A stretch of 64,000 nucleotides of DNA from IMG/VR virus record IMGVR_UViG_3300020037_003306, positions 14,690 to 78,689 of that record; one strand, written 5' to 3'. Positions 16,666 through 64,000 of this stretch are shown in pieces (the first letter of the stretch is position 1; each line of letters begins with the position of its first letter). The notes beneath the pieces are model-generated. The model ran no database searches. It was not told the origin of the DNA and saw nothing but the letters and a program-made list of their open reading frames with translations. The position numbers and the translations under genes are program-made. The DNA is from a virus (taxonomy: Duplodnaviria; Caudoviricetes).

Positions 16666-16697
16666 CAAATTTATGGCTGTTTTTGTTCAATTTGCAA
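16666..16697 (-). promoter_or_regulatory. Bacteroidota housekeeping-sigma-type promoter
   Basis: Minus strand reads TTG-21 nt-TAAATTTG, matching the TTG/-33 and TAnnTTTG/-7 consensus, 30 nt upstream of ATG 16635. Confidence 0.6.
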
Positions 16698-18904: not shown

Positions 18905-19405
18905 TTAAAAAGAAGCTTGCATTATAATATTACTAAGTTTATGTAAACTGTAATCAGGAGGTTTAATGCGAAAATCATGCTTAGTCTTTTTGTGAAGTTT
19001 GCTATAAAGAGCGAGGATAAATTGAGTAGTAATGAAATCTTTAAGGAAATTTACTATGTTCAATTGATTAAGATTTACTCGATTAACTTCACAAAACTTG
19101 TCAAGATATTCTATAAATGGAACACGATAATTATCGTTATTTGTTTCAATGAAATGAACTACACTGATTTGAAAATGTAAATCTTTTAGTTCATCAATAT
19201 CCATTATATAATCGCTATTAAGACCGTTAATAAGAATAACATAATGTAAATGTTTGTTGTTATTAAGGAATTGACTAAGGCGTTTATTTTGTTTATAAGG
19301 ATATGGACATGGATTGATGTAACGATTATCACGTCCAAATGGATTGATTTTAATATCGTTAGGATATTCTATTTTGTGATTATTATGCTCGGCTTTTAGA
19401 TACAT
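18905..19405 (-). CDS. Hypothetical protein
   Basis: 166-aa ORF. Confidence 0.6.
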   Translation of the reverse strand: MYLKAEHNNHKIEYPNDIKINPFGRDNRYINPCPYPYKQNKRLSQFLNNNKHLHYVILINGLNSDYIMDIDELKDLHFQISVVHFIETNNDNYRVPFIEYLDKFCEVNRVNLNQLNIVNFLKDFITTQFILALYSKLHKKTKHDFRIKPPDYSLHKLSNIIMQASF

Positions 19406-19602
19406 GGTTGTATGTTTTGAATTGGTTTGTAAGATTGTGTTGTATGTTTAAGGTGTATAAGGTGTATATTGATGGGTAATTTTAGACCTTTAGGAGTAGT
19501 AGGAGAAATGGGAACAAGGTGGATAAAAGGGAAAAGGTTTATATTTATGGGGAAGTTGATGTGTAAGATTGTATATGAGGATTAGGAGGAAGTGGGTATA
19601 GT
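19404..19602. other. Compositionally extreme tract (C-free on +, G-free on the leftward sense strand)
   Basis: Only 3 C (19487, 19488, 19515) in 199 nt of the plus strand. Confidence 0.9.
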
Positions 19603-19622
19603 CAACGCCATACACTCCCACC

Positions 19623-19940
19623 TCAAACACCATATTCTTTCACAATATCAACTTTCATAATATTAACATCTTCTTTCCTAATCAAACCTTTCAAATCAAG
19701 TATGGTAACTTCACACTCTATTGTAAAAGGTCTAAAATCGACAGCAAGCACTTCAATTTTATTCTTAACAAGCATCTTCAAAAGTTGTTCAACAGTCCAA
19801 CCACTATTACCGTACCTTTTAACCATTTCTTTAATGAACCTTTCACCATCACGAACAGCAGAACCATAAGTTTTAAATAATTCAGCTCTAACAATAGTAA
19901 CATAATCAGCTTGTGTAACATTACAATATAGATTTAGCAT
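19623..19940 (-). CDS. Hypothetical protein
   Basis: 105-aa ORF. Confidence 0.6.
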   Translation of the reverse strand: MLNLYCNVTQADYVTIVRAELFKTYGSAVRDGERFIKEMVKRYGNSGWTVEQLLKMLVKNKIEVLAVDFRPFTIECEVTILDLKGLIRKEDVNIMKVDIVKEYGV

Positions 19941-20057
19941 AACATTAGTTTTAGTTTTTGATTTAATATTGTTTCAAATTTCAAATTTCGATTGTTCTTT
20001 AGTATAATTGTCCTTTAGGCTTTGATTATACATAGTATTACCGTTATTAGCAAGGTA

Positions 20058-20180
20058 TTACGTTACAAAGATAATAAATATTATGGACATTGCGAACATG
20101 ACGACTGTTAAATGTTTATAAAATGTTAGTAGTATTATATTTGTTGCTATCATTGCGAGCATGACGAACATTACAGACAT
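20058..20180 (-). CDS. Small two-TM membrane peptide (40 aa, below ORF-track cutoff)
   Basis: Hand translation MSVMFVMLAMIATNIILLTFYKHLTVVMFAMSIIFIIFVT*. Confidence 0.45.
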   Translation of the reverse strand: MSVMFVMLAMIATNIILLTFYKHLTVVMFAMSIIFIIFVT

Positions 20181-20279
20181 TTATCAACATTATTATTACT
20201 ATAATCATCAACGGTTGTAGCTGCCTAGCATAATTGACAACAAGCGGAGCATTTATTGCTTGCAATATTTCAGTTGCTA

Positions 20280-20298
20280 GTTTGACCGTAGGTCAAAC
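20280..20298. repeat. 8-bp hairpin with cGTAg triloop
   Basis: GTTTGACC-GTA-GGTCAAAC. Confidence 0.8.
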
Positions 20299-20312
20299 CT
20301 TAGCAGGTGGTT
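20293..20312 (-). promoter_or_regulatory. Conserved 20-nt motif copy 1 (putative phage promoter/regulatory site)
   Basis: Plus strand TCAAACCTTAGCAGGTGGTT; near-identical copies at 21233 and 22489. Confidence 0.6.
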
Positions 20313-20332
20313 CAAGTTTATGGTATTTTGTA

Positions 20333-20386
20333 GCTTAATTACCAAAGGTATATTGCCTTTCAGCAATATACCTTTGGTAATTAAGC
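20333..20386. repeat. Perfect 24-bp inverted repeat
   Basis: GCTTAATTACCAAAGGTATATTGC-CTTTCA-GCAATATACCTTTGGTAATTAAGC. Confidence 0.95.
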
Positions 20387-20574
20387 GGTATATTAAGAAC
20401 TCGGTTAATGTAGCATTTATGGTTAAGATTAAAGGGGCAATTATGGTTATACGCAACGCCTGCAACAAACACACCAAGTTGTCCTATTGTATCCAATTGG
20501 GCAGTAATTTTATTATGTAGTTGGGCAGACAATTACTTGGGTTTATCATCAAGAGTTTCAGTAAGCCGATTACC

Positions 20575-20606
20575 AAAAATCCCGCACCGCTCCTAAGAGC
20601 GGCACG
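20575..20606 (-). terminator. Intrinsic terminator of 20625..21191
   Basis: Minus strand CGTGCCGCTC-TTAG-GAGCGGTGCG followed by GGATTTTT. Confidence 0.65.
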
Positions 20607-20624
20607 AAATTCACGATATATATC

Positions 20625-21191
20625 TTACTCAAGGTCTTCATCTTCAGTTGTATCAACAACAACTTTTGGAGTTTCAACTTTTGGAGAAGGAGAGCCTTTT
20701 CTACGACCTTTTCTCGCTTCAGCAAGTTCACGTAAACCTTGCTCACGGTTTAAATCCGCAACATAAGCTTTAGCGTCTTCGCCAAGTACAAGTTCAAAAG
20801 ATAAAGTATCAGTTCTCCAATGAGCGGTAGTATGATACATTAAACCGTCATCGCTAGAAGGGTCTTCAACTTGCTCTCCTGTTTTGAAATCAATAACAGG
20901 TGCGCCTTCTTCAACCCAAACTGCATTTACGCTCAATTTGCTATCATCAAATGAAGCACTAATTGCGTCCGCAAGAATATTGACATTGGTAGCACGCAAG
21001 TTTTGAGCAAAATTGTTAAGATGGTCTTCATTGAATTGAAATACACCTTTAGGATTGCACTCGACACCTTCTTCGCATTTTACAGTAAGTTTGCCATTTT
21101 TATTGATACGAGTATCAATAGATTTGACAACAAAAGTAAAAGTAGTAGGTTTTTTAGCAACTGGTTTAGTTTTTTTAGCTGGATTAGCCAT
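20625..21191 (-). CDS. Hypothetical protein, possible nucleic-acid-binding (basic N-tail, beta-rich core, acidic C-tail)
   Basis: 188 aa; MANPAKKTKPVAKKP...TTEDEDLE; has its own upstream motif and downstream terminator. Confidence 0.65.
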   Translation of the reverse strand: MANPAKKTKPVAKKPTTFTFVVKSIDTRINKNGKLTVKCEEGVECNPKGVFQFNEDHLNNFAQNLRATNVNILADAISASFDDSKLSVNAVWVEEGAPVIDFKTGEQVEDPSSDDGLMYHTTAHWRTDTLSFELVLGEDAKAYVADLNREQGLRELAEARKGRRKGSPSPKVETPKVVVDTTEDEDLE

Positions 21192-21232
21192 AATGTTTGA
21201 AAATTTAAAAATTTAAAAATATTGTTTATTAA

Positions 21233-21252
21233 TCAAAACTTCGCAGGTGGTT
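21233..21252 (-). promoter_or_regulatory. Conserved 20-nt motif copy 2
   Basis: Plus strand TCAAAACTTCGCAGGTGGTT, 42 nt from ATG 21191. Confidence 0.6.
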
Positions 21253-21326
21253 AATTGTTTATGGTTAAAAGTATCAGTAAGGAAATATAAACTCTTGCTG
21301 TCAATGAAGACAACAAGAGTTTAATA

Positions 21327-21944
21327 TTAAAATGCAACAGACTCTTCATAGTTATGAAGTTGTACAGCAGTTGCTACATTTGCAGTAATATTTTCTGCGT
21401 GTACAATATCTTCAATATGTACAGTTTCAAGTTCTATTGTACGAGTTTTATAGTTTCGTACTTTAAAACTGACATTAATGCCATTATCAACGTAATTAAC
21501 AGTACCTACAACTATTTTATTTAAGTAGTGTAAAGATACATAATCAGCTTGTTCAAGTTGACCCCAAATTTTATCTCCGTCAATGAAAGTATCTTGTTCA
21601 GCAGGAAATGGAACATGATTATCCTTTTTTCGTAAGTCAATAGTATCCAAAGGAGTTTCAATTTTAACCCAACCATTGATAGTACTATACAAATCGCCAA
21701 GAGCTTGAGCATTGTCTTGAATTGGGTCAATGATAGTTTCAACAAGTTTAACAAAATAATCAGTATTAATATTGTTAGATAGCGTAAAACTATTACCAAG
21801 TAATATCTGTTTAATACATTCATCAACACTGCGAATCCCTGTAACTTCTTTACTTTCAAATGGAGTAAGAAACAATTTGAGAAGTGCTTTTACAACAACA
21901 TCAACACTCAATTGATAAGTAAACGTTTTATTATAATTTTTCAT
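21327..21944 (-). CDS. Hypothetical protein
   Basis: 205-aa ORF. Confidence 0.65.
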   Translation of the reverse strand: MKNYNKTFTYQLSVDVVVKALLKLFLTPFESKEVTGIRSVDECIKQILLGNSFTLSNNINTDYFVKLVETIIDPIQDNAQALGDLYSTINGWVKIETPLDTIDLRKKDNHVPFPAEQDTFIDGDKIWGQLEQADYVSLHYLNKIVVGTVNYVDNGINVSFKVRNYKTRTIELETVHIEDIVHAENITANVATAVQLHNYEESVAF

Positions 21945-22031
21945 AACAACTAGATTTTATAAATGAATAATAAGATTAGTAAGAATATCCTCTCTAGTAC
22001 ATCTACGGTGTACATTATCGAGAGGATTATA

Positions 22032-22454
22032 TTATTGAAGAATAGTAATATGTTTTGGAGCATATATAATATACTCCGTTTGAACAGTTGCTTCTTGATT
22101 ATCAACAATAATAGTTTTTACAGTTGGCGTATCAAGATGTACATTGCGAAATGCACTATCAAATGTAACAATTGTTGAAAGTGTAGAATTGCTCTCAAGT
22201 ACAGAAATAATTCTATTAGATTTATTATGAGTTACTGTAACAGTACACTCGATGATAATTCTATTAGATTTAGTTTCAACAACTTCAACTCTTCCTTTCA
22301 ATGAATGAGAAAGAGTTTCAACATTGTCAAGATTATAAGTTTTGGCGAATGTAGTTGTAGATTGAGCTTTCAAAAACATAGGTATCGAAGTAAACACCAT
22401 TACAATTATCATAATGATAATCAATTTTAAATTAGAAGGTTTTGTAACTAGCAT
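22032..22454 (-). CDS. Putative exported protein (signal peptide)
   Basis: Start at ATG 22454: MLVTKPSNLKLIIIMIIVMVFTSIPMFLKA|QSTTTFAKTY..., followed by a beta-rich mature domain. Confidence 0.6.
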   Translation of the reverse strand: MLVTKPSNLKLIIIMIIVMVFTSIPMFLKAQSTTTFAKTYNLDNVETLSHSLKGRVEVVETKSNRIIIECTVTVTHNKSNRIISVLESNSTLSTIVTFDSAFRNVHLDTPTVKTIIVDNQEATVQTEYIIYAPKHITILQ

Positions 22455-22488
22455 GATTATAAGTATTAAGAATAAGAGAATTTGTATA

Positions 22489-22508
22489 TCAAAACTTAGC
22501 AGGTGGTT
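22489..22508 (-). promoter_or_regulatory. Conserved 20-nt motif copy 3
   Basis: Plus strand TCAAAACTTAGCAGGTGGTT, 35 nt from ATG 22454. Confidence 0.6.
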
Positions 22509-22710
22509 AATGATTGTGTTCATTGTGGAATGTAATGGAACAATGAATACAATCAATATGTTTATGGTCTTCGTTCCTATTGAGTCCTACATCAACTGTA
22601 TAATATAGATTGTCATTTCGATTATGTGTAGTTCTATATCCTAGTTTGTCGTTTCAATTCTATATAATTGTACTGTTATGTTTGGATATGTTATGCACAT
22701 TAAGCGTATA

Positions 22711-22901
22711 ACTATCAAGCAGCACATCACTCCTCAAAGTAATACCATTATCTTTATGAAAGTTTAAAAGTTTATAAGCTTGAGCAATGGAAAATAATTA
22801 TTTTTAATTATTTTCTTGCGAAAGATTATATACTTTTAAACTTTCATAAAGATACCCGGGGTATTCAATTTACTTTGAGGAGGGAGGGGGTGATTGATAG
22901 T
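22711..22901. repeat. ~190-bp quasi-palindrome at the transcription strand switch (candidate origin / bidirectional control element)
   Basis: Nested inverted arms: 22730-22742/22870-22882 (13 bp perfect), 22749-22771/22832-22854 (23 bp perfect), 22790-22800/22805-22815 (11 bp perfect, TTTT loop), with partial pairing between them. Confidence 0.9.
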
Positions 22902-23099
22902 ATCACACCCACGTACCCACACTTTCTACAACTTCAACATCTTCACATTTACACACGCTAACAACTCCTATCTTATACAAATACACATTCATACCTTCTA
23001 CTTCTCAATCATTTCCACCTTCACCATCATATACACCTTAACCTTCACAACCTTCCTCAACACCTTCAACATACCTCAAATTCCATACCTTATATATAT
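22901..23099. other. G-free tract on the rightward sense strand
   Basis: Only 2 G (22913, 22957) in 199 nt; no G from 22958 to 23099. Confidence 0.9.
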
Positions 23100-23240
23100 G
23101 GTATAGCGTGGCGGAATTGCCTACCCAGTTAAACGCTATCACATTCAAATCATTCAAACAACCAAACATACGCTAAACGCTACGATACAGCCAATGCCCA
23201 TTTAAACAACACATTTAAACCTTAATAGTAAACTTAATCC

Positions 23241-23368
23241 TAACTTTGAGTATAAAGTATAGAAACCAACAAATAAGACTTATTTAAAGAAAATTACAAG
23301 CCAATGAAACTATTTTATAAAATAAACACTTATAAATTTGTAAGTGTAGTTAAGATGTTATATACTTG
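23241..23368 (+). promoter_or_regulatory. Candidate Bacteroidota-type promoters for the rightward arm
   Basis: Perfect TAnnTTTG matches at 23241-23248 (TAACTTTG) and 23333-23340 (TAAATTTG); also TTTG(23337)-20 nt-TATACTTG(23361). Confidence 0.45.
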
Positions 23369-23402
23369 TATAGTAATTGAACAACAACTAAAACAATTCA
23401 AA

Positions 23403-23819
23403 ATGACTATTGAAGACAAAGCTGCTCTTGAAGTTGAACTTCTTAAAGCTACACTTAGTAATACAATTATATCTTGGAATGAGAAATGCGCTAAGTTATC
23501 TTATGTTGCTAGATTTGGATATGCTATTGATTTTGAAGATAGTGCTTCTCGTAAATCAGATGATGCTCCTGGAATTATCACTGGTATAATTGATGTTACT
23601 TCTTTCGTACAAACTGCGGTACTAACTATATTTAGTCAAGGCGTTGGTTCTCAAAAACAAAAAGTTCTATTTAGTTATCGTCATAGTTTTAGTCCTTCTG
23701 ATGTTATGGAAGGTTTTACAGATTACGATTTCAATAAAGCTATACTTCTTCTTTTGAAAGAAGTTTTCATTGAAGCATTTGGAACATTTCTTATCACGAT
23801 TGATAAACTTGTTAAATAG
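23403..23819 (+). CDS. Hypothetical protein
   Basis: Start placed at ATG 23403 (MTIEDK), downstream of the promoter-like elements; 138 aa. Confidence 0.6.
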   Translation: MTIEDKAALEVELLKATLSNTIISWNEKCAKLSYVARFGYAIDFEDSASRKSDDAPGIITGIIDVTSFVQTAVLTIFSQGVGSQKQKVLFSYRHSFSPSDVMEGFTDYDFNKAILLLLKEVFIEAFGTFLITIDKLVK

Positions 23820-24041
23820 ATGCTTATAGATAATACAATTAAAACGGTTCTTGAAAAGATTCAATCTCAAGTTAAGAAAGAATTTGATGTTGACCTTACA
23901 CAAGAAGAATTACTTGAAATAGTGGATAGCCAATTTAAAGTTATCCCTGATGCAATTGAAAATAAAGATACAGTTAAACTTGATAAACTTGGTAAGTTCC
24001 TCATTAAAGAAATGAGAACTAAAGTTTTAAAAGATAAATAA
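23820..24041 (+). CDS. HU/IHF-like DNA-binding protein
   Basis: 73 aa; LLEIVDSQFKVIPDAIENKDTVKLDKLGKF matches the HU/IHF helix plus VxLxxFGxF pattern; DNA-binding arm truncated. Confidence 0.65.
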   Translation: MLIDNTIKTVLEKIQSQVKKEFDVDLTQEELLEIVDSQFKVIPDAIENKDTVKLDKLGKFLIKEMRTKVLKDK

Positions 24042-24314
24042 GGTAGTGTTCCTTAATTAAGAACGGCAAGTATTACACATCTAGTTAATAACGGGGATTG
24101 TGTTTAATATCTTAACCGAACAAAAATATAACTTAATGGGGATTGTGTTAATCAATTTATTCACCACACAAAACATTCTAATGATGTTTATAAAACCTTT
24201 AAGCTTTATGATGGCGATTGTGGTAAACAACAATCCTTCATTAATTAAGATAACGCCTAGTTGCTTGCTTGCCTAGTTGTTGCCCGTCATGAATAGGTTC
24301 GTGGCGGGCTTTTT
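24042..24314 (+). ncRNA. Candidate structured non-coding RNA
   Basis: 288-nt ORF-free gap with three GG(G/C)GATTGTG(T/G)T repeats, long-range complementarity and a terminator at the 3' end. Confidence 0.35.
24282..24314 (+). terminator. Intrinsic terminator
   Basis: GCCCGTCATGAA-TAGG-TTCGTGGCGGGC-TTTTT; the two G-U pairs define the plus strand. Confidence 0.8.
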
Positions 24315-24329
24315 AATTCTCATACTATT

Positions 24330-24653
24330 ATGGCTACTAAAAAAGGAAGAACTCTAAAGATTATCTTTAAAACTTTCGACCGTGAAGGTATTACTGAAAA
24401 ACATAACGGTTTACTTAAACTTAAAATTAAAGCTGTTTATATTTACAATAATATTGCAAAGACTAAAGGTGCTGTTAAATTAACTGCTCCTGAAATCGCT
24501 AGTATCATTTATAATATACTAGGTGTTAATTGTAATCTTGAATTAATTTCAATTAGACGTATGAGAATATGTGGAGGTGGAGAAGAAGGAGAGCTTAGAG
24601 AACTCTCTCAATATTTAACTGAGAAAGAAAAAACTATCATTCGCCTGTACTAA
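24330..24653 (+). CDS. Hypothetical basic protein
   Basis: 107-aa ORF. Confidence 0.6.
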   Translation: MATKKGRTLKIIFKTFDREGITEKHNGLLKLKIKAVYIYNNIAKTKGAVKLTAPEIASIIYNILGVNCNLELISIRRMRICGGGEEGELRELSQYLTEKEKTIIRLY

Positions 24654-57878: not shown

Positions 57879-60800
57879 ATGTCTGGTCCAAAGCATATAC
57901 CTTTTGATAATAATCTTAAAGGTAAACAGTCTGCCAATACTACTAATTCTAAACCTGTTCATATTCCTTTAACTTCAGATTTTGCTGCAACTCCTGATGC
58001 AAATTCTGAATTTAAAATGCTACCTACGCTTGATGACAATCGTCAAAAAAGTTATGTTGACCCTACTAAATATAGTCCTTATATAAAAACAGGTGTCATG
58101 GATAATGACCTTCTTGATATTGCTCGTGCGAGGTCGCAAAGTAAAGGAGAGAAATTTCTTGGCTTTTTAAATCAATCTATTCTAGGTGAAATTATTGGAG
58201 GTTCAATTGGTGCTATTGGTGCAACTTTAGATATTCCCGATGCTATTTATTCTAAAATTACTGGAGGTAATGTCGATTTTAGTAATTGGATGACAGGACT
58301 TGGTGATAAAATTCGTGAAACTTCTGAAGAGATGACACCTATTTATGAACGTAATCCTACTGGTTCTTTTCAATTTGGAGATTTTGCTTGGTGGATGAAT
58401 AGAGGTAAATCTGTTGTTTCTACTATATCTATGTTAGTTCCTGCACTTGCAACTACGAAAGGACTTTCTATGCTTGGTAAAGCTGGAGAAGCTCTTGCAG
58501 GTACGAGTAAATTAAAAGGAACTGCTCTTGGTAAAGTACTTGGCGCACCTAATAAAATTGCAGGAGATGCTAGAGAATTAGCTAAACTTGGAGTTAATGC
58601 AACTGTAATGCGTAACGCTGAGAATATGAAAGAAGCTTTTACTACTTATCAAGAAGGGTATGGAGCTGCGCAAGAAGCTTTTCGTGATGATGCTAAATAC
58701 GAAGAATTTCTACAAACAGAACAAGGAAAAGAATTTGCTGCAAATCATGATACTTCTGATAGAGAAATGGCTGCTCAATTTCTAGCTTCTAAAGCTGGTT
58801 GGAAAACTTATCAAGTTAATAGTGCTAATATTGTATTTGATTTGATACAAGCGTCTGCACTTATGAAACCTATTTTTACTGGCGCTCACGCTACAACAAG
58901 AGGTGCAAGAAGAAATGCTGCTTTAACTAACGTTATTAAACCTACTAATAACTCCGCTATTAAAGCTTGGCGTAATACTTCTCCATTCCTCGGTGCTATT
59001 ATGCGTCAAAGCACAGAAGGTATTGAAGAAATGGTCAACCATATTGGCGGAAAAGAAGGTAGTCATTATATCAAAACAATACTTGAAGGTGATGACGGTA
59101 CTGATTTTGCAGATAGACTTGCAGAATACAGTAAAGACCCTGCTATGTGGGAGAGTGGAATGTGGGGTGTAGCTGGTGGTATGGTATTTGAAGGTGTTGG
59201 AAAACTAATGAAAGGTGATTCTGATACTAAATTAAATAGCGCATTATTACAACAAGCTGCTACTCGTAAAACACAGCTTTCTGACCATGCTAAATTTATT
59301 GCAAATACTCAAAATCTAGTAGATGCAAATAAACTTACACAAGACGAAGCTAATAGAAAGATAGGGCAAGCTAAAGCTGCTCTTGCTTCTGAAATGACTT
59401 TAAATGCTATCGCTACACAATCTGTTGACGCACTTCTTGACCAACTTGATAACGGCGATTTTGCAGAAGCTGTTAGAGCTTCAATGCCTAAAGATGAAGC
59501 AAAAGAAATGGGGGATACTGCTGTTCAAAAGGCTGTTGAAAATCTAAAGAACGATATTCTTCAAACAGAGCGTATTTACAAAGAAGCTGCTAAAAATGTT
59601 GAAAGTAGAGATATTCCTGAAGATGTAAAATTCCGTCTTGCAACTAATCAAACTACACGTCAATTTCAGATTGAAAAATTTCACGCAGCTAATCAGGAAA
59701 TTAATGCTAAAATTGCTAAAATTCAAACGCAAGATGTTAATTATATAACTAATTTATCATCTGCTTCTGATATTTATTTAGATTTGAAAGCTGCTGAGGA
59801 TTATCTTAAAGACCAACAAGAAGCTCTTGACGCTTTTAATAAAGGTCAAATTAAAGAACAATTTGATAAGAAAACTGTTGAACATTCTATCAAAGAACTT
59901 CCTGCAGCAATTCAAAAATTAAAAGACCAACTTACTGAACTTGAAACAAGTGGTGTAGGTAAAGGACTTTCTAACCCTGAACTTGACGCTGTAAATAAAG
60001 ATGCTCATACTTTACGTAAAGAATCTTGGAATAATAAATATACTATTGACCTTCAACAGAAAGAACTTTCTCATTTAAAAACTGAAGCTGGTGCAAAAGA
60101 ATATGCTGCAAAAGTTGAAGAGATTAAAACTAAAGTTGAAGAAATTGATAAACGTAATAAATTAAAAGATTACACTGATTCAATTGATAAAACTATTAGT
60201 GCAGGTAATATTGATGCTGCCATTACTGAATTGGAAAGTGAACTGAAAACTCAAACTGGAGTTGAAGAGAAAAAGTATGTTCAAAAGAAACTAAAAGAGC
60301 TTAAAGATAAGAAAGATTTTTTAGCTAAAACTCAGGTTGAAGAAGAAACTGAAACTGTAGATGGTACTGAAGAAACGGAAGGTGAAATTCCTCAAACTCC
60401 TGAAACTAAATCTACAATTCAAGTAACTGATGAACAAGTTAAAAAAGAACTTGGAGCTGCTCTTTTTAGCGCATTAGAAAAAGCTATTAATAAAATTCTA
60501 ACAAGTGGAGATTCTAAAGAGAAAATTACCAAAGATTTAGAAGCTCGTAAGAATGGTATTAAATTAAAAGATAAACCCCTTGCTCAAGCTTATATTCAAG
60601 CTAAAATTGACGCTGTTAATCAAGTATCAAATGATACTCAATTGACTGAATATCAAGGTATTAAAGTTGGCAATATCTATACACTTAAAGGTGTAACTTA
60701 CGAAGTTACTAAAATTGTCGATAATGGTACTGAAGTTAAAATCATTACTATTAAAGATGGTACTAAAAGTTCTAGTCTAAAAGCTGCCCAAGTGCTGGGC

Positions 60801-63800
60801 AAACTTAGTACGGGCGAAATGAAACTTCTTAACACTGAAACAACTACTCAAATTGATACTGATGTATTAGTAAAACATTTAGAAGATATGCAAAGTCTTC
60901 CTAATGATGCTGATTATCATTTATTCAATTTTGTAAATAATCTTGCTAATAAGTTAGGAGTCGAAGTTCCTGCTGAAATTATTGAGTTAATTAATTTGAT
61001 TGATAATACTTACGGTATTACAGTTGCAGTTAATCCTAAAGCTAATGAATTTCCAGCAGGCTTTAACCCTGCTAATAATCGCATTACGTTTTATCCTAGT
61101 GTAATTAAAGGGCTTAATCTCGATTCTGATTTCCTCTTTAGAGAAATTATTGGACATGAACTTATCCATGCTTTACTAACTAATAAATATCCTCATAATA
61201 CTGCTGAAAGAACAGCCTTTGAAAATTGGCTAAAAGGTAAAATTACTGCTAATAAAGATTTATTAACTGATAAAGTTTTTAAACCTATTCTTGACGGCAA
61301 TCCCGAAGAGTTACTTACCTACGCTTTAACTAATCCTAAAGTATGGGAACAATTACCTATTGAATTACAAACCGTAATTGAAGATTTTGTTGAAAATATC
61401 ATGCCTGAATTAGATGGACTTCTTGAGATTGTCAAAACAGCTCAATACCAAGAACAAAATCCTACTAATGAAACGCAAGAGAATACTGAATTACCTGTTA
61501 AAATTACCGACCCTGCTCGTCTTCGTGCAAAAGAATATAACCTTGATTTAGATGCAATTGAAGGTACTGGTAAAAATGGAACTATTACTTTAACCGATGT
61601 TCAAAATTTCATTAAAACTAATAATATTACTTTGCTTGACGAAATTCCAACTGAATCATTAACTTCTAACAATGAAGTTGCAGAAGGAAGTAATAATATC
61701 TTTTTAAGTTTCCTTGACTTAGGTATTAAAGATGGAGTTGTAGATGTCAATCACTATAAAGAGCAAGTTAGAAAACGTGGTTGGAGAGTACCTGATATTA
61801 CGCAAGAGGAACTCGAAGAAGCTATTATTGCAACTACTACTGGAGAAATAAATACAGGTTCAACTCTTGAGTTAGTTCCTGAAGGAAGAGGTATTGCTAT
61901 TAAAACACGTAAAGGTATTACTATTGGTTGGTTAAATGATATTGATAGATTGCGTGAAGAGTATAAATATGCACTCGCTCTTAGTAAAATGACAATGGAC
62001 GAGCTTACAGCTGAAAAGAAGAAGTACGAAAAAAGTTTTTATACTTATCATAATCGTCTTATTAAATGGAGAATGAGTGAGTTCTACGCTAATAATACTA
62101 ATAAACCTTTTGCTACTGCTATTGAAACATTAAAAAATCAAGGTGTTTCAGCGAAAGCGATTATTGAAACTATTAAGAATACACTTGCTCGTGACCCTAA
62201 TGCTAAGTTTTACACTCAAGTTACTCGTAAAACATCAGGTAATTTATTGCAAGACGATAAGCAACAAAGTTTAGATAGCGTATTTCCTGAACTTGATGAA
62301 ATATTTATAGCTCCATCAACAACTCAAGCTGGTCATAAATCTAGTATCCTTGTATCTTCTAAAGATTCTACAATAGAGTTCCAAAGAATTTCTGAGAATG
62401 AGTATATGAATCATGATAATGAATATTACGCTGGAACTGTTTATATTATGGTTCCTGGTGCAAATGCAATTGAAGGTAATATTTCAACTTATATTCCTGT
62501 ACCATGTTCTGTTAATAATGTTAATGAAGAAACTGCCAATAAAATCACTGATTTAATTGGTAAGCTTGCTAATGTTATGATGGAACTTCATGCTTCAAAA
62601 ACTGATAGTTTTAATATTCTAGTTAATGAGCGAGTGTCTGCACTTCGCAATGAGATTAACGATTATATTAACGTTACAAAAGCTAACTCTACTAATGAAG
62701 ATTATTTCAAAGTTTATAGCGATAGCATTAAATTTTCTTATGGGAAAGGTCTTGTTGCTAGCATTTACTTTAAAAATGAACAGAAAGAATCTGTTATAAA
62801 TTTAGTTCTAACTGACCCTTCTAAAAAAGATGCTAAAGGTAAAGATTTGATTATTAAACAACCTAACTTTAAAGGTGCAGAAGTAAGTGCGTTAAATGCA
62901 ATGACAGATGGTAATAAACCTGTCTTTCGTGCTAAATTGAATGAGTTGCTACAAACGAAACGTCATAATGTCAATTTTAAGAAATTAAAATCTGACGAAG
63001 AATACCGTAAGCATTTGTTTAAAAATGTTATTACTACTGATGTTAAAACTGTTAAAACTCCTGATGGTAAAGATTTAAAAAACGGAAAAAATCGTGTTCC
63101 GTCGGTAACTTCCAAAGGTGCAAAAAAAGACAAAAATAGTAGCTTGGTGCTTAGTATTTCCAGCAAATTAGGCGTGAAAAGTTCTGTGCTTACTTCTAAT
63201 ACATCTACGCAAAAACAAGGGCAGGAAACTAAAGTAAATGAGCCGAAACCAAGCCAAACAACGACAAAAGTTGAGCTTGCTAATGGTGATATGCAAATTG
63301 TTGCTGATGCTTTATTTGAAAAGGGAACTGTTACGCTTTCTACCAAAAAAGAAGCTGACGATTTGAAGAAAGCTGTTAGAAAGCAATTAGCTCAAGGTGA
63401 AGTTATTGATATTAAGAAAATTGATGATAATAATTTTGAAGTAAGTATCATTTCTAATAATAGCGGCATCGCCCGTACTAAAGTTGTTTCGGGAATTGTA
63501 CAAACTGATGAAGCTATTAACGTTGAAAATGCTAAAGCTTGGTGGGCTAAAACATTTGGAGAAAATGTTGAACTTGACATGAACGTTACAGGTATTCTAC
63601 TTATCAACGGAGTTGAAGCTTGGGGTGTTTTTCAAGATGCTATGGCTAAAATTAGTACAAGTGCTATAAAAGGAACTGAATATCACGAGGCTTTTCACGT
63701 TGTTTTTTGGTTATATAATAATGAAGAGCAGAGAGCTGCACTCCTTGAAGAAGCTAGAAGTCGCTATGGTAACATCGGTAATGTTGCTTTAGAGGAAAAT

Positions 63801-64000
63801 CTTGCTGACGAGTTTATGGATTATATGCTTAAAGGTGGTAAAACTTCTCGTGTTGAAAAAGGTTCTAAAACTGAAGGCTTCTTTGCTAAAATCTATAATT
63901 GGATTAAAAGTTTCTTTAGTAAACCTATTCCAAAGAGTTTAACTGAAGACTTGTATGATAAAATTGATAGCGGTACGTTCAATTATAAACCTGATGAAGC
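57879..64000 (+). CDS. Partial giant virion cargo polyprotein (>2040 aa; TM segments, two zincin HExxH motifs, PSBD-like domain)
   Basis: ATG 57879 (MSGPKHIPF). Not in the ORF track, which implies no in-frame stop before the window end. Gly-rich TM segments, STEGIEEMVN motif, HELIH at 61155-61169, HEAFH at 63684-63698. Confidence 0.8.
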   Translation, partial: MSGPKHIPFDNNLKGKQSANTTNSKPVHIPLTSDFAATPDANSEFKMLPTLDDNRQKSYVDPTKYSPYIKTGVMDNDLLDIARARSQSKGEKFLGFLNQSILGEIIGGSIGAIGATLDIPDAIYSKITGGNVDFSNWMTGLGDKIRETSEEMTPIYERNPTGSFQFGDFAWWMNRGKSVVSTISMLVPALATTKGLSMLGKAGEALAGTSKLKGTALGKVLGAPNKIAGDARELAKLGVNATVMRNAENMKEAFTTYQEGYGAAQEAFRDDAKYEEFLQTEQGKEFAANHDTSDREMAAQFLASKAGWKTYQVNSANIVFDLIQASALMKPIFTGAHATTRGARRNAALTNVIKPTNNSAIKAWRNTSPFLGAIMRQSTEGIEEMVNHIGGKEGSHYIKTILEGDDGTDFADRLAEYSKDPAMWESGMWGVAGGMVFEGVGKLMKGDSDTKLNSALLQQAATRKTQLSDHAKFIANTQNLVDANKLTQDEANRKIGQAKAALASEMTLNAIATQSVDALLDQLDNGDFAEAVRASMPKDEAKEMGDTAVQKAVENLKNDILQTERIYKEAAKNVESRDIPEDVKFRLATNQTTRQFQIEKFHAANQEINAKIAKIQTQDVNYITNLSSASDIYLDLKAAEDYLKDQQEALDAFNKGQIKEQFDKKTVEHSIKELPAAIQKLKDQLTELETSGVGKGLSNPELDAVNKDAHTLRKESWNNKYTIDLQQKELSHLKTEAGAKEYAAKVEEIKTKVEEIDKRNKLKDYTDSIDKTISAGNIDAAITELESELKTQTGVEEKKYVQKKLKELKDKKDFLAKTQVEEETETVDGTEETEGEIPQTPETKSTIQVTDEQVKKELGAALFSALEKAINKILTSGDSKEKITKDLEARKNGIKLKDKPLAQAYIQAKIDAVNQVSNDTQLTEYQGIKVGNIYTLKGVTYEVTKIVDNGTEVKIITIKDGTKSSSLKAAQVLGKLSTGEMKLLNTETTTQIDTDVLVKHLEDMQSLPNDADYHLFNFVNNLANKLGVEVPAEIIELINLIDNTYGITVAVNPKANEFPAGFNPANNRITFYPSVIKGLNLDSDFLFREIIGHELIHALLTNKYPHNTAERTAFENWLKGKITANKDLLTDKVFKPILDGNPEELLTYALTNPKVWEQLPIELQTVIEDFVENIMPELDGLLEIVKTAQYQEQNPTNETQENTELPVKITDPARLRAKEYNLDLDAIEGTGKNGTITLTDVQNFIKTNNITLLDEIPTESLTSNNEVAEGSNNIFLSFLDLGIKDGVVDVNHYKEQVRKRGWRVPDITQEELEEAIIATTTGEINTGSTLELVPEGRGIAIKTRKGITIGWLNDIDRLREEYKYALALSKMTMDELTAEKKKYEKSFYTYHNRLIKWRMSEFYANNTNKPFATAIETLKNQGVSAKAIIETIKNTLARDPNAKFYTQVTRKTSGNLLQDDKQQSLDSVFPELDEIFIAPSTTQAGHKSSILVSSKDSTIEFQRISENEYMNHDNEYYAGTVYIMVPGANAIEGNISTYIPVPCSVNNVNEETANKITDLIGKLANVMMELHASKTDSFNILVNERVSALRNEINDYINVTKANSTNEDYFKVYSDSIKFSYGKGLVASIYFKNEQKESVINLVLTDPSKKDAKGKDLIIKQPNFKGAEVSALNAMTDGNKPVFRAKLNELLQTKRHNVNFKKLKSDEEYRKHLFKNVITTDVKTVKTPDGKDLKNGKNRVPSVTSKGAKKDKNSSLVLSISSKLGVKSSVLTSNTSTQKQGQETKVNEPKPSQTTTKVELANGDMQIVADALFEKGTVTLSTKKEADDLKKAVRKQLAQGEVIDIKKIDDNNFEVSIISNNSGIARTKVVSGIVQTDEAINVENAKAWWAKTFGENVELDMNVTGILLINGVEAWGVFQDAMAKISTSAIKGTEYHEAFHVVFWLYNNEEQRAALLEEARSRYGNIGNVALEENLADEFMDYMLKGGKTSRVEKGSKTEGFFAKIYNWIKSFFSKPIPKSLTEDLYDKIDSGTFNYKPDE

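Follow-up and report, generated by a model that had tools for sequence, protein, structure and literature searches.

The crAss-like phages are among the most abundant phages known. Two other groups offer described parallels to the locus analysed here: coliphage N4, whose virion RNA polymerase (RNAP) uses early promoters P1-P3 with 5-7-bp hairpins and a 3-nt loop at a fixed position upstream of the start, and the T4-type phages, whose numerous PeSL (promoter-early stem-loop) cassettes carry host sigma-70 early promoters. The injected crAss-like polymerase has been studied in a single phage, phi14:2; for this enzyme, gp66, transcription in vitro proceeds on single-stranded DNA only. In phi14:2 the replication arm is the rifampicin-resistant early arm transcribed by gp66, with abundant early non-coding RNAs close to its head, and its authors detected no common motif upstream of the gp66-made early transcripts (bioRxiv 10.1101/2020.03.07.982082). 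The literature consulted yields no crAss-like early promoter consensus for comparison, in agreement with the premise of the original prediction that this sequence is undefined. The Bacteroidetes sigma-A promoter combines a -33 TTTG with a -7 TAnnTTTG (PMC9723704); in F. psychrophilum the -7 box extends from -12 to -5, and Flavobacterium has a spacing variant, SM5, that is one base shorter.

We analysed a 64,000-nt window (positions 14,690-78,689 of IMGVR_UViG_3300020037_003306, the record of an uncultured crAss-like phage, itself 78,689 nt in full), to which all coordinates refer. A pattern scan with the 20-mer TCAAAMCTTMGCAGGTGGTT confirmed the three matches on which the original prediction was built (20293-20312, 21233-21252 and 22489-22508; 0.02 expected by chance), all of them on the plus strand, in line with the single orientation it had described. 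Allowing up to three mismatches added no match to these three, and a scan of the whole 78,689-nt record recovered the same three alone, in keeping with the remark that the motif had not been noticed in the late arm. The copies all fall within a 2.2-kb interval where the replication arm begins; they are all sense-oriented relative to the leftward units and match one another as closely as phage-polymerase promoters do. The 20-mer proved to belong to an element in two parts, of which it forms the 3′ half: ACCATAAAC-N3-5-AACCACCT[G/A]C[T/G][A/T]AG-NNN-TGA. A second word previously placed upstream of each copy, GTTTATGGT, occurs four times in the genome, three of these at 20316, 21257 and 22560; its association with all three copies stands, with the amendment that at copy 3 it lies 51 nt from the core and not 3-4 nt. 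The core-to-ATG distances given earlier (113 nt to 20180, 42 nt to 21191 and 35 nt to 22454) are likewise correct, but the 40-codon ORF at 20180 is unlikely to be a gene: an indel disrupts its reading frame in the related contig L009, and a corresponding ORF is missing from all relatives. In leftward order, the region contains:

22560..22568, minus strand: upstream box of copy 3, ACCATAAAC
22508..22558, minus strand: hairpin separating the copy 3 core from its upstream box, with a 16-18-bp stem and a 13-nt loop
22489..22508, minus strand: copy 3 core, sense AACCACCTGCTAAGTTTTGA, heading the leftward arm
22032..22454, minus strand: 140-aa gene that opens the arm, its product having a hydrophobic N-terminus; hypervariable among relatives
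21327..21944, minus strand: 205-aa gene that lacks its own motif copy
21288..21323, minus strand: terminator-like hairpin with a T-rich tail, closing the putative first unit and conserved in relatives
21233..21265, minus strand: copy 2, ACCATAAAC-aatt-AACCACCTGCGAAGTTTTGA
20625..21191, minus strand: 188-aa gene for an OB-fold, tentatively SSB-like protein with an acidic C-terminal tail
20575..20606, minus strand: terminator-like hairpin and T-run 3′ of the 188-aa gene, conserved in L009
20417..20449, minus strand: pair of additional AACCATAA(A/T) boxes preceding copy 1
20333..20386, no strand assigned: perfect 24-bp inverted repeat upstream of copy 1, retained in close relatives only
20293..20324, minus strand: copy 1, ACCATAAAC-ttg-AACCACCTGCTAAGGTTTGA
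20280..20298, minus strand: hairpin GTTTGACC-tac-GGTCAAAC directly after the ...TAAG of copy 1
19941..20292, minus strand: non-coding stretch downstream of copy 1, containing a conserved box, TATGCTAGGCAGC, at 20220-20232

Retrieval via the neighbouring gene gave eight related contigs, and thus nine loci with 21 element instances for comparison; searches for related loci with the 188-aa protein or the terminase as query returned no usable relatives. The element is present in the eight contigs and, across the nine loci, is kept at the same three syntenic places, namely where the replication arm begins, 42-61 nt ahead of the OB-fold SSB-like gene, and within a 300-700-nt non-coding stretch, even where the neighbouring protein is merely 31-54% identical. 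ACCACCT, C10, AG and TGA are invariant in all 21 instances. Beyond this clade, a megablast search of 19900-23400 against GenBank phages gave no match. Exact-pattern scans found no multi-copy contig in IMG/VR (one unrelated sequence was seen three times) and 22 singletons in JGI metagenomes, with L014 as the sole relative; the bipartite pattern had at least 119 singleton matches in IMG/VR, and the 3′ extension was found in none among the matches listed. In a scan of 185,579 species genomes, the motif was recurrent in none, and its 76 singletons were distributed over all phyla. Searches of the neighbouring small proteins against PHROGs (ten proteins) and Pfam (nine) produced nothing usable.

In comparison with L035, the cassettes show 93-98% nucleotide identity versus 63-65% for the genes; the 140-aa gene, for instance, is 65% identical between flanks of 93-98%. 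Contigs that are nearly identical elsewhere (L009, L012) also differ by gene replacement or truncation, as with the 205-aa gene, shortened to 125 aa in both, and a nested palindrome at the strand switch adjoins the element. The mosaicism, the gene replacements and the palindrome would all be expected if the elements were mainly recombination linkers, or sites for replication or packaging proteins, conserved for the exchange of early modules and with no direct part in transcription. Recombination, rather than selection, could indeed account for part of the high cassette identity among close relatives. The core, however, persists in the distant L014, L037, L039, L040 and L042 though the flanks are no longer alike, which argues for selection on the core itself, and a linker would not be expected to keep a strict sense orientation and a fixed placement ahead of each unit; we regard such a role as very improbable.

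The cassettes would instead start the first three leftward transcription units. The first, headed by copy 3, would comprise the gene for the hypervariable membrane protein and the 205-aa gene, the two being probably co-transcribed. The copy 3 core is identical in L009, L035, L036 and L040; conservation ends 6 nt past the core in four relatives, and the divergent region upstream is also conserved. The hairpin separating the two boxes has a DNA-fold z-score of -3.3 (-6.0 for its counterpart in L035), and in L040 a hairpin of different sequence occupies the same position between the boxes; the hairpin is kept through compensatory changes. The second unit would consist of the 188-aa gene as a monocistron; in L014, L039, L040 and L042, orthologous copy 2 sites precede the homologous gene by 42-61 nt. 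Fold searches with the 188-aa protein returned weak OB-fold matches alone (Foldseek E of at least 0.03, VIA Z of at most 5.4), and its likeness to SSB is tentative.

The third unit, starting at copy 1, would produce a non-coding RNA with a 5′-proximal hairpin. This hairpin has an 8-bp stem in five lineages, with Watson-Crick pairs in 40 of 40 cells and compensatory changes at five of the eight positions, as counted by hand; RNAalifold on a MAFFT alignment placed the stem out of register. The stretch downstream of copy 1 has no conserved ORF in any lineage, and it can be considered a candidate early non-coding RNA. An Rfam search of 19300-24400 recovered no family, only sub-threshold miRNA-hairpin noise, and the 253 nt downstream of copy 1 fold with z = 0.15, i.e., their global structure is not unusual. 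Additional upstream boxes like those at copy 1 were found in L014 and L040 too.

The covariation of the copy 1 hairpin, the precise placement of the copy 3 hairpin between the boxes in two lineages despite differing sequences, and the conserved divergent region upstream of copy 3 would each also suit a site acting at the RNA level, in processing, stabilization or antitermination, with the promoter further upstream and the hairpins joining the boxes in the transcript. Little RNA is expected at these places, however, with a terminator-like hairpin preceding copy 2 and the terminator of the 188-aa gene preceding copy 1. Moreover, no Rfam family matches, the sequences downstream of copies 2 and 3 are unconserved and share no common fold, and the sharp end of conservation is more typical of a promoter edge. 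An RNA-level role is improbable, and the element is likely to be a promoter.

As to the polymerase, the resemblance to the Bacteroidetes -7 box, which had been described as loose, is borne out: the 3′ part, AAG[G/T]TTTGA, is one base off. TAnnTTTG as such was not found in the copies, which read TAAGTTTTG, GAAGTTTTG or TAAGGTTTG, corresponding to TA-N3-TTTG or AAnnTTTG. TTTG is kept in all copy 2 and copy 3 instances and lost in three of the five copy 1 lineages, the copy 1 orthologues having CTATG, CCTTG or TCTTG at this point. A -33 TTTG or TTG about 19-21 nt upstream of the -7-like part is absent from all 21 instances, its expected position being occupied by ACCATAAAC or a hairpin. In sequence, the element falls outside the canonical Bacteroidetes sigma-A promoters: the -33 TTTG is lacking, the -7-like part is one base off and the spacer is invariant. 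By comparison with that promoter class, it has the wrong TA-TTTG spacing and about 20 additional invariant upstream positions. Compared by eye only, the sigma-54 and ECF-type consensuses do not fit. Canonical TAnnTTTG boxes are present, and conserved, elsewhere in the genome, with no intergenic enrichment (8 sense matches in 5.8 kb vs 74 in 72.9 kb of coding sequence).

These observations bear on the most serious rival reading, in which host RNAP, with sigma-A or an alternative sigma factor, would recognize AAG[G/T]TTTG as a -7-like box, and the invariant AACCACCT and ACCATAAAC would be operators through which a regulator, of phage or host origin, turns the units on or off. If the box occupies -12 to -5, the start would fall at ...GATAT|A, about where copy 3 conservation ends, a coincidence that counts against the reading we prefer; the ATG distances fit a start 4-5 nt after TGA, and the implied 5′UTRs of ~30-55 nt are typical of the phylum. 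The several ACCATAAA boxes upstream of copy 1 resemble regulator sites, the TTTG of every copy 2 and copy 3 would fall in the box, and the SM5 variant offers a precedent for altered spacing. This reading has to contend with the missing -33 element, the copy 1 lineages without TTTG, a spacer that stays invariant despite deep divergence, unlike those of host promoters, and the failure of the motif to recur in any representative prokaryote genome; further, a phage regulator would be absent at the onset of infection unless injected. We consider host recognition of this kind unlikely, but a contender to be taken seriously; were it correct, the element would represent an extended promoter/operator architecture that is unusual among Bacteroidetes-type phages.

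In the alternative that we prefer, the host sigma-A holoenzyme does not act alone, and recognition would fall to dedicated machinery of high sequence specificity, most likely an injected gp66-type virion RNAP. That the lineage encodes such an enzyme, as the original prediction presupposed, is shown by relatives of the giant virion protein, in which DFD[IV]D is present and which match gp66. The present record is broken inside the virion RNAP gene, with the catalytic part missing, which weighs against the preferred reading; for this reason no DFDxD was found in its giant ORFs. Further, phmmer searches of both giant-ORF pieces against PDB gave no gp66 match. Like phi14:2, this phage has an arm that would be read from its head, with small genes followed by a long non-coding stretch, and a virion RNAP of the same family; by this analogy, the timing of the units would be early. 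The two differ in that no common early motif was detected in phi14:2, a point against our reading, whereas the motif here is high in information and clade-conserved. Within the first 9 kb of phi14:2, we found neither the present motif nor any obvious shared repeat.

From what the sequences display directly, i.e., the position, orientation and conservation of the element, its covarying hairpins and non-canonical architecture, and a virion-RNAP gene in the lineage, we infer both promoter function and the identity of the polymerase. The three copies would be the core part of an early-promoter cassette that is bipartite and conserved across the clade (ACCATAAAC, 3-5 nt, AACCACCT[G/A]C[T/G][A/T]AG, 3 nt, TGA) for dedicated machinery, most likely the gp66-type enzyme, an overall account to which we give slightly less than an even chance; reading of the element by the virion polymerase, taken by itself, we likewise hold to fall just short of evenly balanced. 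The proposal of virion-RNAP promoters or operator sites is thus upheld as regards an oriented, phage-specific and conserved element at unit starts, with host RNAP plus operators still in contention as the reader. Since there are only three copies for a 29-kb arm, the remainder must rely on read-through or on other promoters. On its sequence features, the cassette is a strong candidate for the undefined early promoter of crAss-like phages. A cassette read by the virion RNAP would be new, phi14:2 having shown no common early motif; being compact, clade-conserved and high in information, the element furnishes a defined template on which promoter recognition can be probed biochemically, and it marks a probable abundant early non-coding RNA.

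The arrangement recalls N4 in its few near-identical, clustered and oriented copies at the head of a region that would be early by analogy with phi14:2, in the phage injecting an RNAP, and in the associated DNA hairpins. Hairpins precede copies 1 and 2, with the one at copy 2 alone being terminator-like with a T-rich tail. Unlike in N4, there is no hairpin at a fixed distance in every promoter, which also weighs against our preferred reading: at copy 1 the hairpin follows the core, at copy 3 it separates the two boxes, and copy 2 has none adjacent; in addition, the N4 polymerase is T7-like and the one here two-barrel and gp66-type. Local hairpins might be extruded in the template DNA during recognition. 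In a more specific and rather doubtful version of the account, ACCATAAAC / AACCACCTRCTWAG..TGA would be the first promoter to be defined in sequence for a virion RNAP of the crAss-like (gp66-type, two-barrel) kind, read on unwound or hairpin-extruded DNA, with the cassettes doubling as recombination joints. Such reading would explain both the tolerance of the boxes for an intervening 42-51-nt hairpin at copy 3 and the dependence of gp66 on single-stranded templates in vitro, and the joints would serve to shuffle early genes.

The locus also parallels the PeSL cassettes, in that modules of a stem-loop and a candidate early promoter flank small variable early ORFs and outdo these genes in conservation, which points to modular exchange. 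It differs from them in that a crAss-like phage is involved, the copies number three, and their bipartite core is not host-like. In both settings the regulatory cassettes would outlast, in conservation, the early genes that they drive.

A scan with the degenerate 20-mer (up to 3 mismatches allowed) recovered only three matches, at 20293, 21233 and 22489, all on the + strand, against a chance expectation of 0.02 from shuffles. They are also the sole copies in the entire 78,689-nt IMG/VR virus record, of which the window represents bases 14690-78689. This bears out the original prediction of a 20-nt motif occurring thrice in a single orientation and going unnoticed in the late arm. Read on the minus strand, which is the local gene sense, the copies conform to AACCACCTGC[T/G]AAG[G/T]TTTGA, and the predicted distances of 113, 42 and 35 nt from the copy ends to the ATGs at 20180, 21191 and 22454, respectively, were reproduced. 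A second word, GTTTATGGT (sense ACCATAAAC), predicted to lie upstream of each copy in the sense direction, occurs four times genome-wide, with three of these occurrences adjoining motif copies. One copy stands at the head of each of the three units that open the leftward arm.

Transcription units headed by the motif copies
Unit 1, minus strand: copy 3 (22489-22508), followed by a 140-aa gene (hydrophobic N-terminus) and a 205-aa gene, after which a terminator-like hairpin (21288-21323) closes the unit
Unit 2, minus strand: copy 2 (21233-21252), followed by the 188-aa gene (20625-21191) with its own terminator
Unit 3, minus strand: copy 1 (20293-20312), followed by the stretch 19941-20292, devoid of a conserved ORF

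In the related contig locus L009 the 40-codon ORF at 20180 is not kept in frame, and the other relatives compared have no counterpart of it. The non-coding stretch 3′ of copy 1 also contains two copies of a direct repeat, GTCATG[C/T]TCGCAATG (20090-20170), kept in close relatives.

The genome matches crAss-type PHROGs for the terminase (6681), portal (6547) and major capsid protein (11589), and its closest GenBank terminases are from Crassvirales, at <30% identity. Its genes diverge from 22455-23303: the leftward arm, extending from 22454 to genome position 7985, encodes the DNA polymerase, helicases and primase, and the rightward arm carries structural genes and giant virion proteins. At the strand switch (22711-22901) are nested inverted repeats, with 39-nt arms within 32-nt arms, that are ~95% conserved in L009. 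Tracts of ~200 nt nearly lacking G on the locally transcribed strand (22901-23100, plus; 19406-19622, minus) flank both sides of the three-cassette block, with similar ones in L040; they look rut-like.

DNA and pattern searches for relatives had a low yield, with L014 found as a single metagenome pattern match. The others were reached via the 188-aa protein: a word-indexed search and a profile search covering 1.84 billion representatives led to homologues, whose encoding contigs were then looked up. In all, 21 instances of the element were assembled across nine loci (the window, L009, L035, L036, L014, L037, L039, L040 and L042); L035 comes from a 76-kb contig and L040 from an 86-kb contig that shares the synteny. 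L010-L012 hardly differ from the window. All loci spanning the place have the element at the same three positions.

Conserved positions of the element
At the arm head
42-61 nt ahead of the gene homologous to the 188-aa one
Within a non-coding stretch of 300-700 nt

The element is bipartite, with ACCATAAA[C/T] separated by 3-5 nt from the 20-mer core, in which positions 2-8 (ACCACCT), 10 (C), 13-14 (AG) and 18-20 (TGA) are invariant among 10 distinct versions. In the more distant loci the neighboring protein is just 31-54% identical to that of the window, yet these core positions are kept. Relative to L035, nucleotide identity is 63-65% in the three genes versus 93-98% in the inter-gene cassettes. 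Identity at copy 3 extends through ...TTTTGATATACA in four relatives, which diverge abruptly beyond it. Among relatives the first leftward gene (140 aa; 22032-22454) is strongly diverged between a near-identical promoter cassette and downstream hairpin, and the 205-aa gene product is reduced to 125 aa in L009 and L012; together these suggest cassette-mediated exchange of early genes. A role of the element in recombination only is less likely than one as a promoter.

The simplest account, which we hold to be probable from these sequence features, is that the element is a promoter; this explains why it is strictly oriented and lies behind terminators and ahead of unit starts, why conservation stops sharply on its downstream side, and why the core persists where the flanks have diverged. 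Its high information content, near-identical copies and non-host-like architecture point to a dedicated reader. A less probable but real rival is that the host RNAP reads it, together with an added operator. The sigma-A −7 box of Flavobacterium psychrophilum, TAnnTTTG, occupies positions −12 to −5, and a form with one base fewer between TA and TTG also exists (PMC9723704). Taking the 3′ part of the element as such a box places the start 4-5 nt after TGA, exactly where copy-3 conservation ends, and TTTG is retained at every copy 2 and copy 3, which keeps this rival in play. However, the closest readings are TA-N3-TTTG or AAnnTTTG, TTG is absent at −33, and what would be the spacer does not vary. 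Three of the five copy-1 lineages have TATG or CTTG in place of TTTG, and none of the 185,579 species genomes scanned has the core as a recurrent motif. Canonical boxes are present elsewhere in the genome.

Canonical TAnnTTTG boxes
16666-16673, minus strand: TTG 21 nt upstream; promoter-like position
23241-23248 and about 23332, plus strand: promoter-like position ahead of the first rightward gene; also retained by L035 and L040

The 171-aa ORF at 23304 may have its true start at a later Met.

A candidate for the dedicated reader is the virion RNA polymerase. The giant ORFs of the record lack a DFDxD motif; the record ends within a giant virion-protein gene (locus L044), leaving two open pieces, a 2040-codon ORF running past the 3′ end and, from base 1, one of 792 codons, which a simple circular join places out of frame.

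Pieces of the giant virion-protein gene
Window 57879-63998: 2040-codon piece
Whole record 1-2379: 792-codon piece

DFDID or DMDVD is present in P0049, a relative 98% identical to the 792-aa piece, and in more distant full-length proteins (3233-3853 aa); these match gp66 of phage phi14:2 around the catalytic motif (blastp 8e-13 to 9e-50). Since their termini match the two ORF pieces, ~1,900 residues are absent from the assembly, including, by comparison with these relatives, the gp66-type RNAP catalytic motif DFD[IV]D, and the '100% complete' estimate is too high by ~5-6 kb. The next ORF (genome 2436-7547) matches gp65. A virion RNAP of the gp66 type is thus encoded in the lineage. For phi14:2, transcription of the entire replication module is early and for the most part resists rifampicin, a pair of non-coding regions near the arm head are very abundantly transcribed from the first time point, and early transcripts had no detected common upstream motif (bioRxiv 10.1101/2020.03.07.982082); the literature searched offered no definition of a crAss early promoter. 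By position and analogy, the injected virion polymerase is the leading candidate for the reader, an assignment slightly short of even in our estimate.

Hairpins accompany two of the copies. Directly 3′ of ...TAAG at copy 1, five lineages have an 8-9-bp hairpin, with arms GTTTGACC/GGTCAAAC, CTATGAGC/GCTCATAG, CCTTGAGC/GCTCAAGG, TCTTGACC/GGTCAAGA and GTTTGAAG/CTTCAAAC; pairing is Watson-Crick in 40/40 cells, with compensatory substitutions at five of the eight stem positions. With a transcription start within ...CTAAG, it would give the RNA a 5′ stem-loop, and with a start after TGA it would straddle that start; an RNA-level role for the element itself is less likely than the promoter reading. 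The window group, like L014, has a box, TATGCTAGGCAGC, ~62-64 nt further downstream; L037 has a variant of it, and it is also found in L040. At copy 3, a hairpin lies between the ACCATAAAC box and the core; it takes up 51 nt in the window group and, with a different sequence, 42 nt in L040. Discounting it, the boxes would be ~4-6 nt apart, comparable to the 3-5 nt at copies 1 and 2. The resulting spacing differences of 38 and 47 nt are not whole helical turns, so the two boxes are unlikely to be held in one fixed geometry on the double helix.

The 188-aa protein is confidently predicted (pLDDT 86) to adopt a small β-barrel that carries a long C-terminal helix, and its C-terminal tail is acidic. 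As its structural matches are weak and mostly to OB-fold nucleic-acid binders, we label it SSB-like only tentatively; its family has ~44 representative members in public data, none annotated.

Another repeat family is formed by the 18-mer CGCC[CT]GTACTAAATTGCT, with five near-exact copies on both strands, within and between genes.

Copies of the 18-mer repeat (negative positions precede the window start)
−1705, minus strand
−888, plus strand
7882, plus strand
16801, minus strand
24642, plus strand

Further, the 288-nt gap 3′ of the HU/IHF-like gene contains two copies of GGGGATTGTGTT and one of GGCGATTGTGGT (24093-24224), and closes with a strong terminator-like hairpin just 20 nt before the ATG at 24330.
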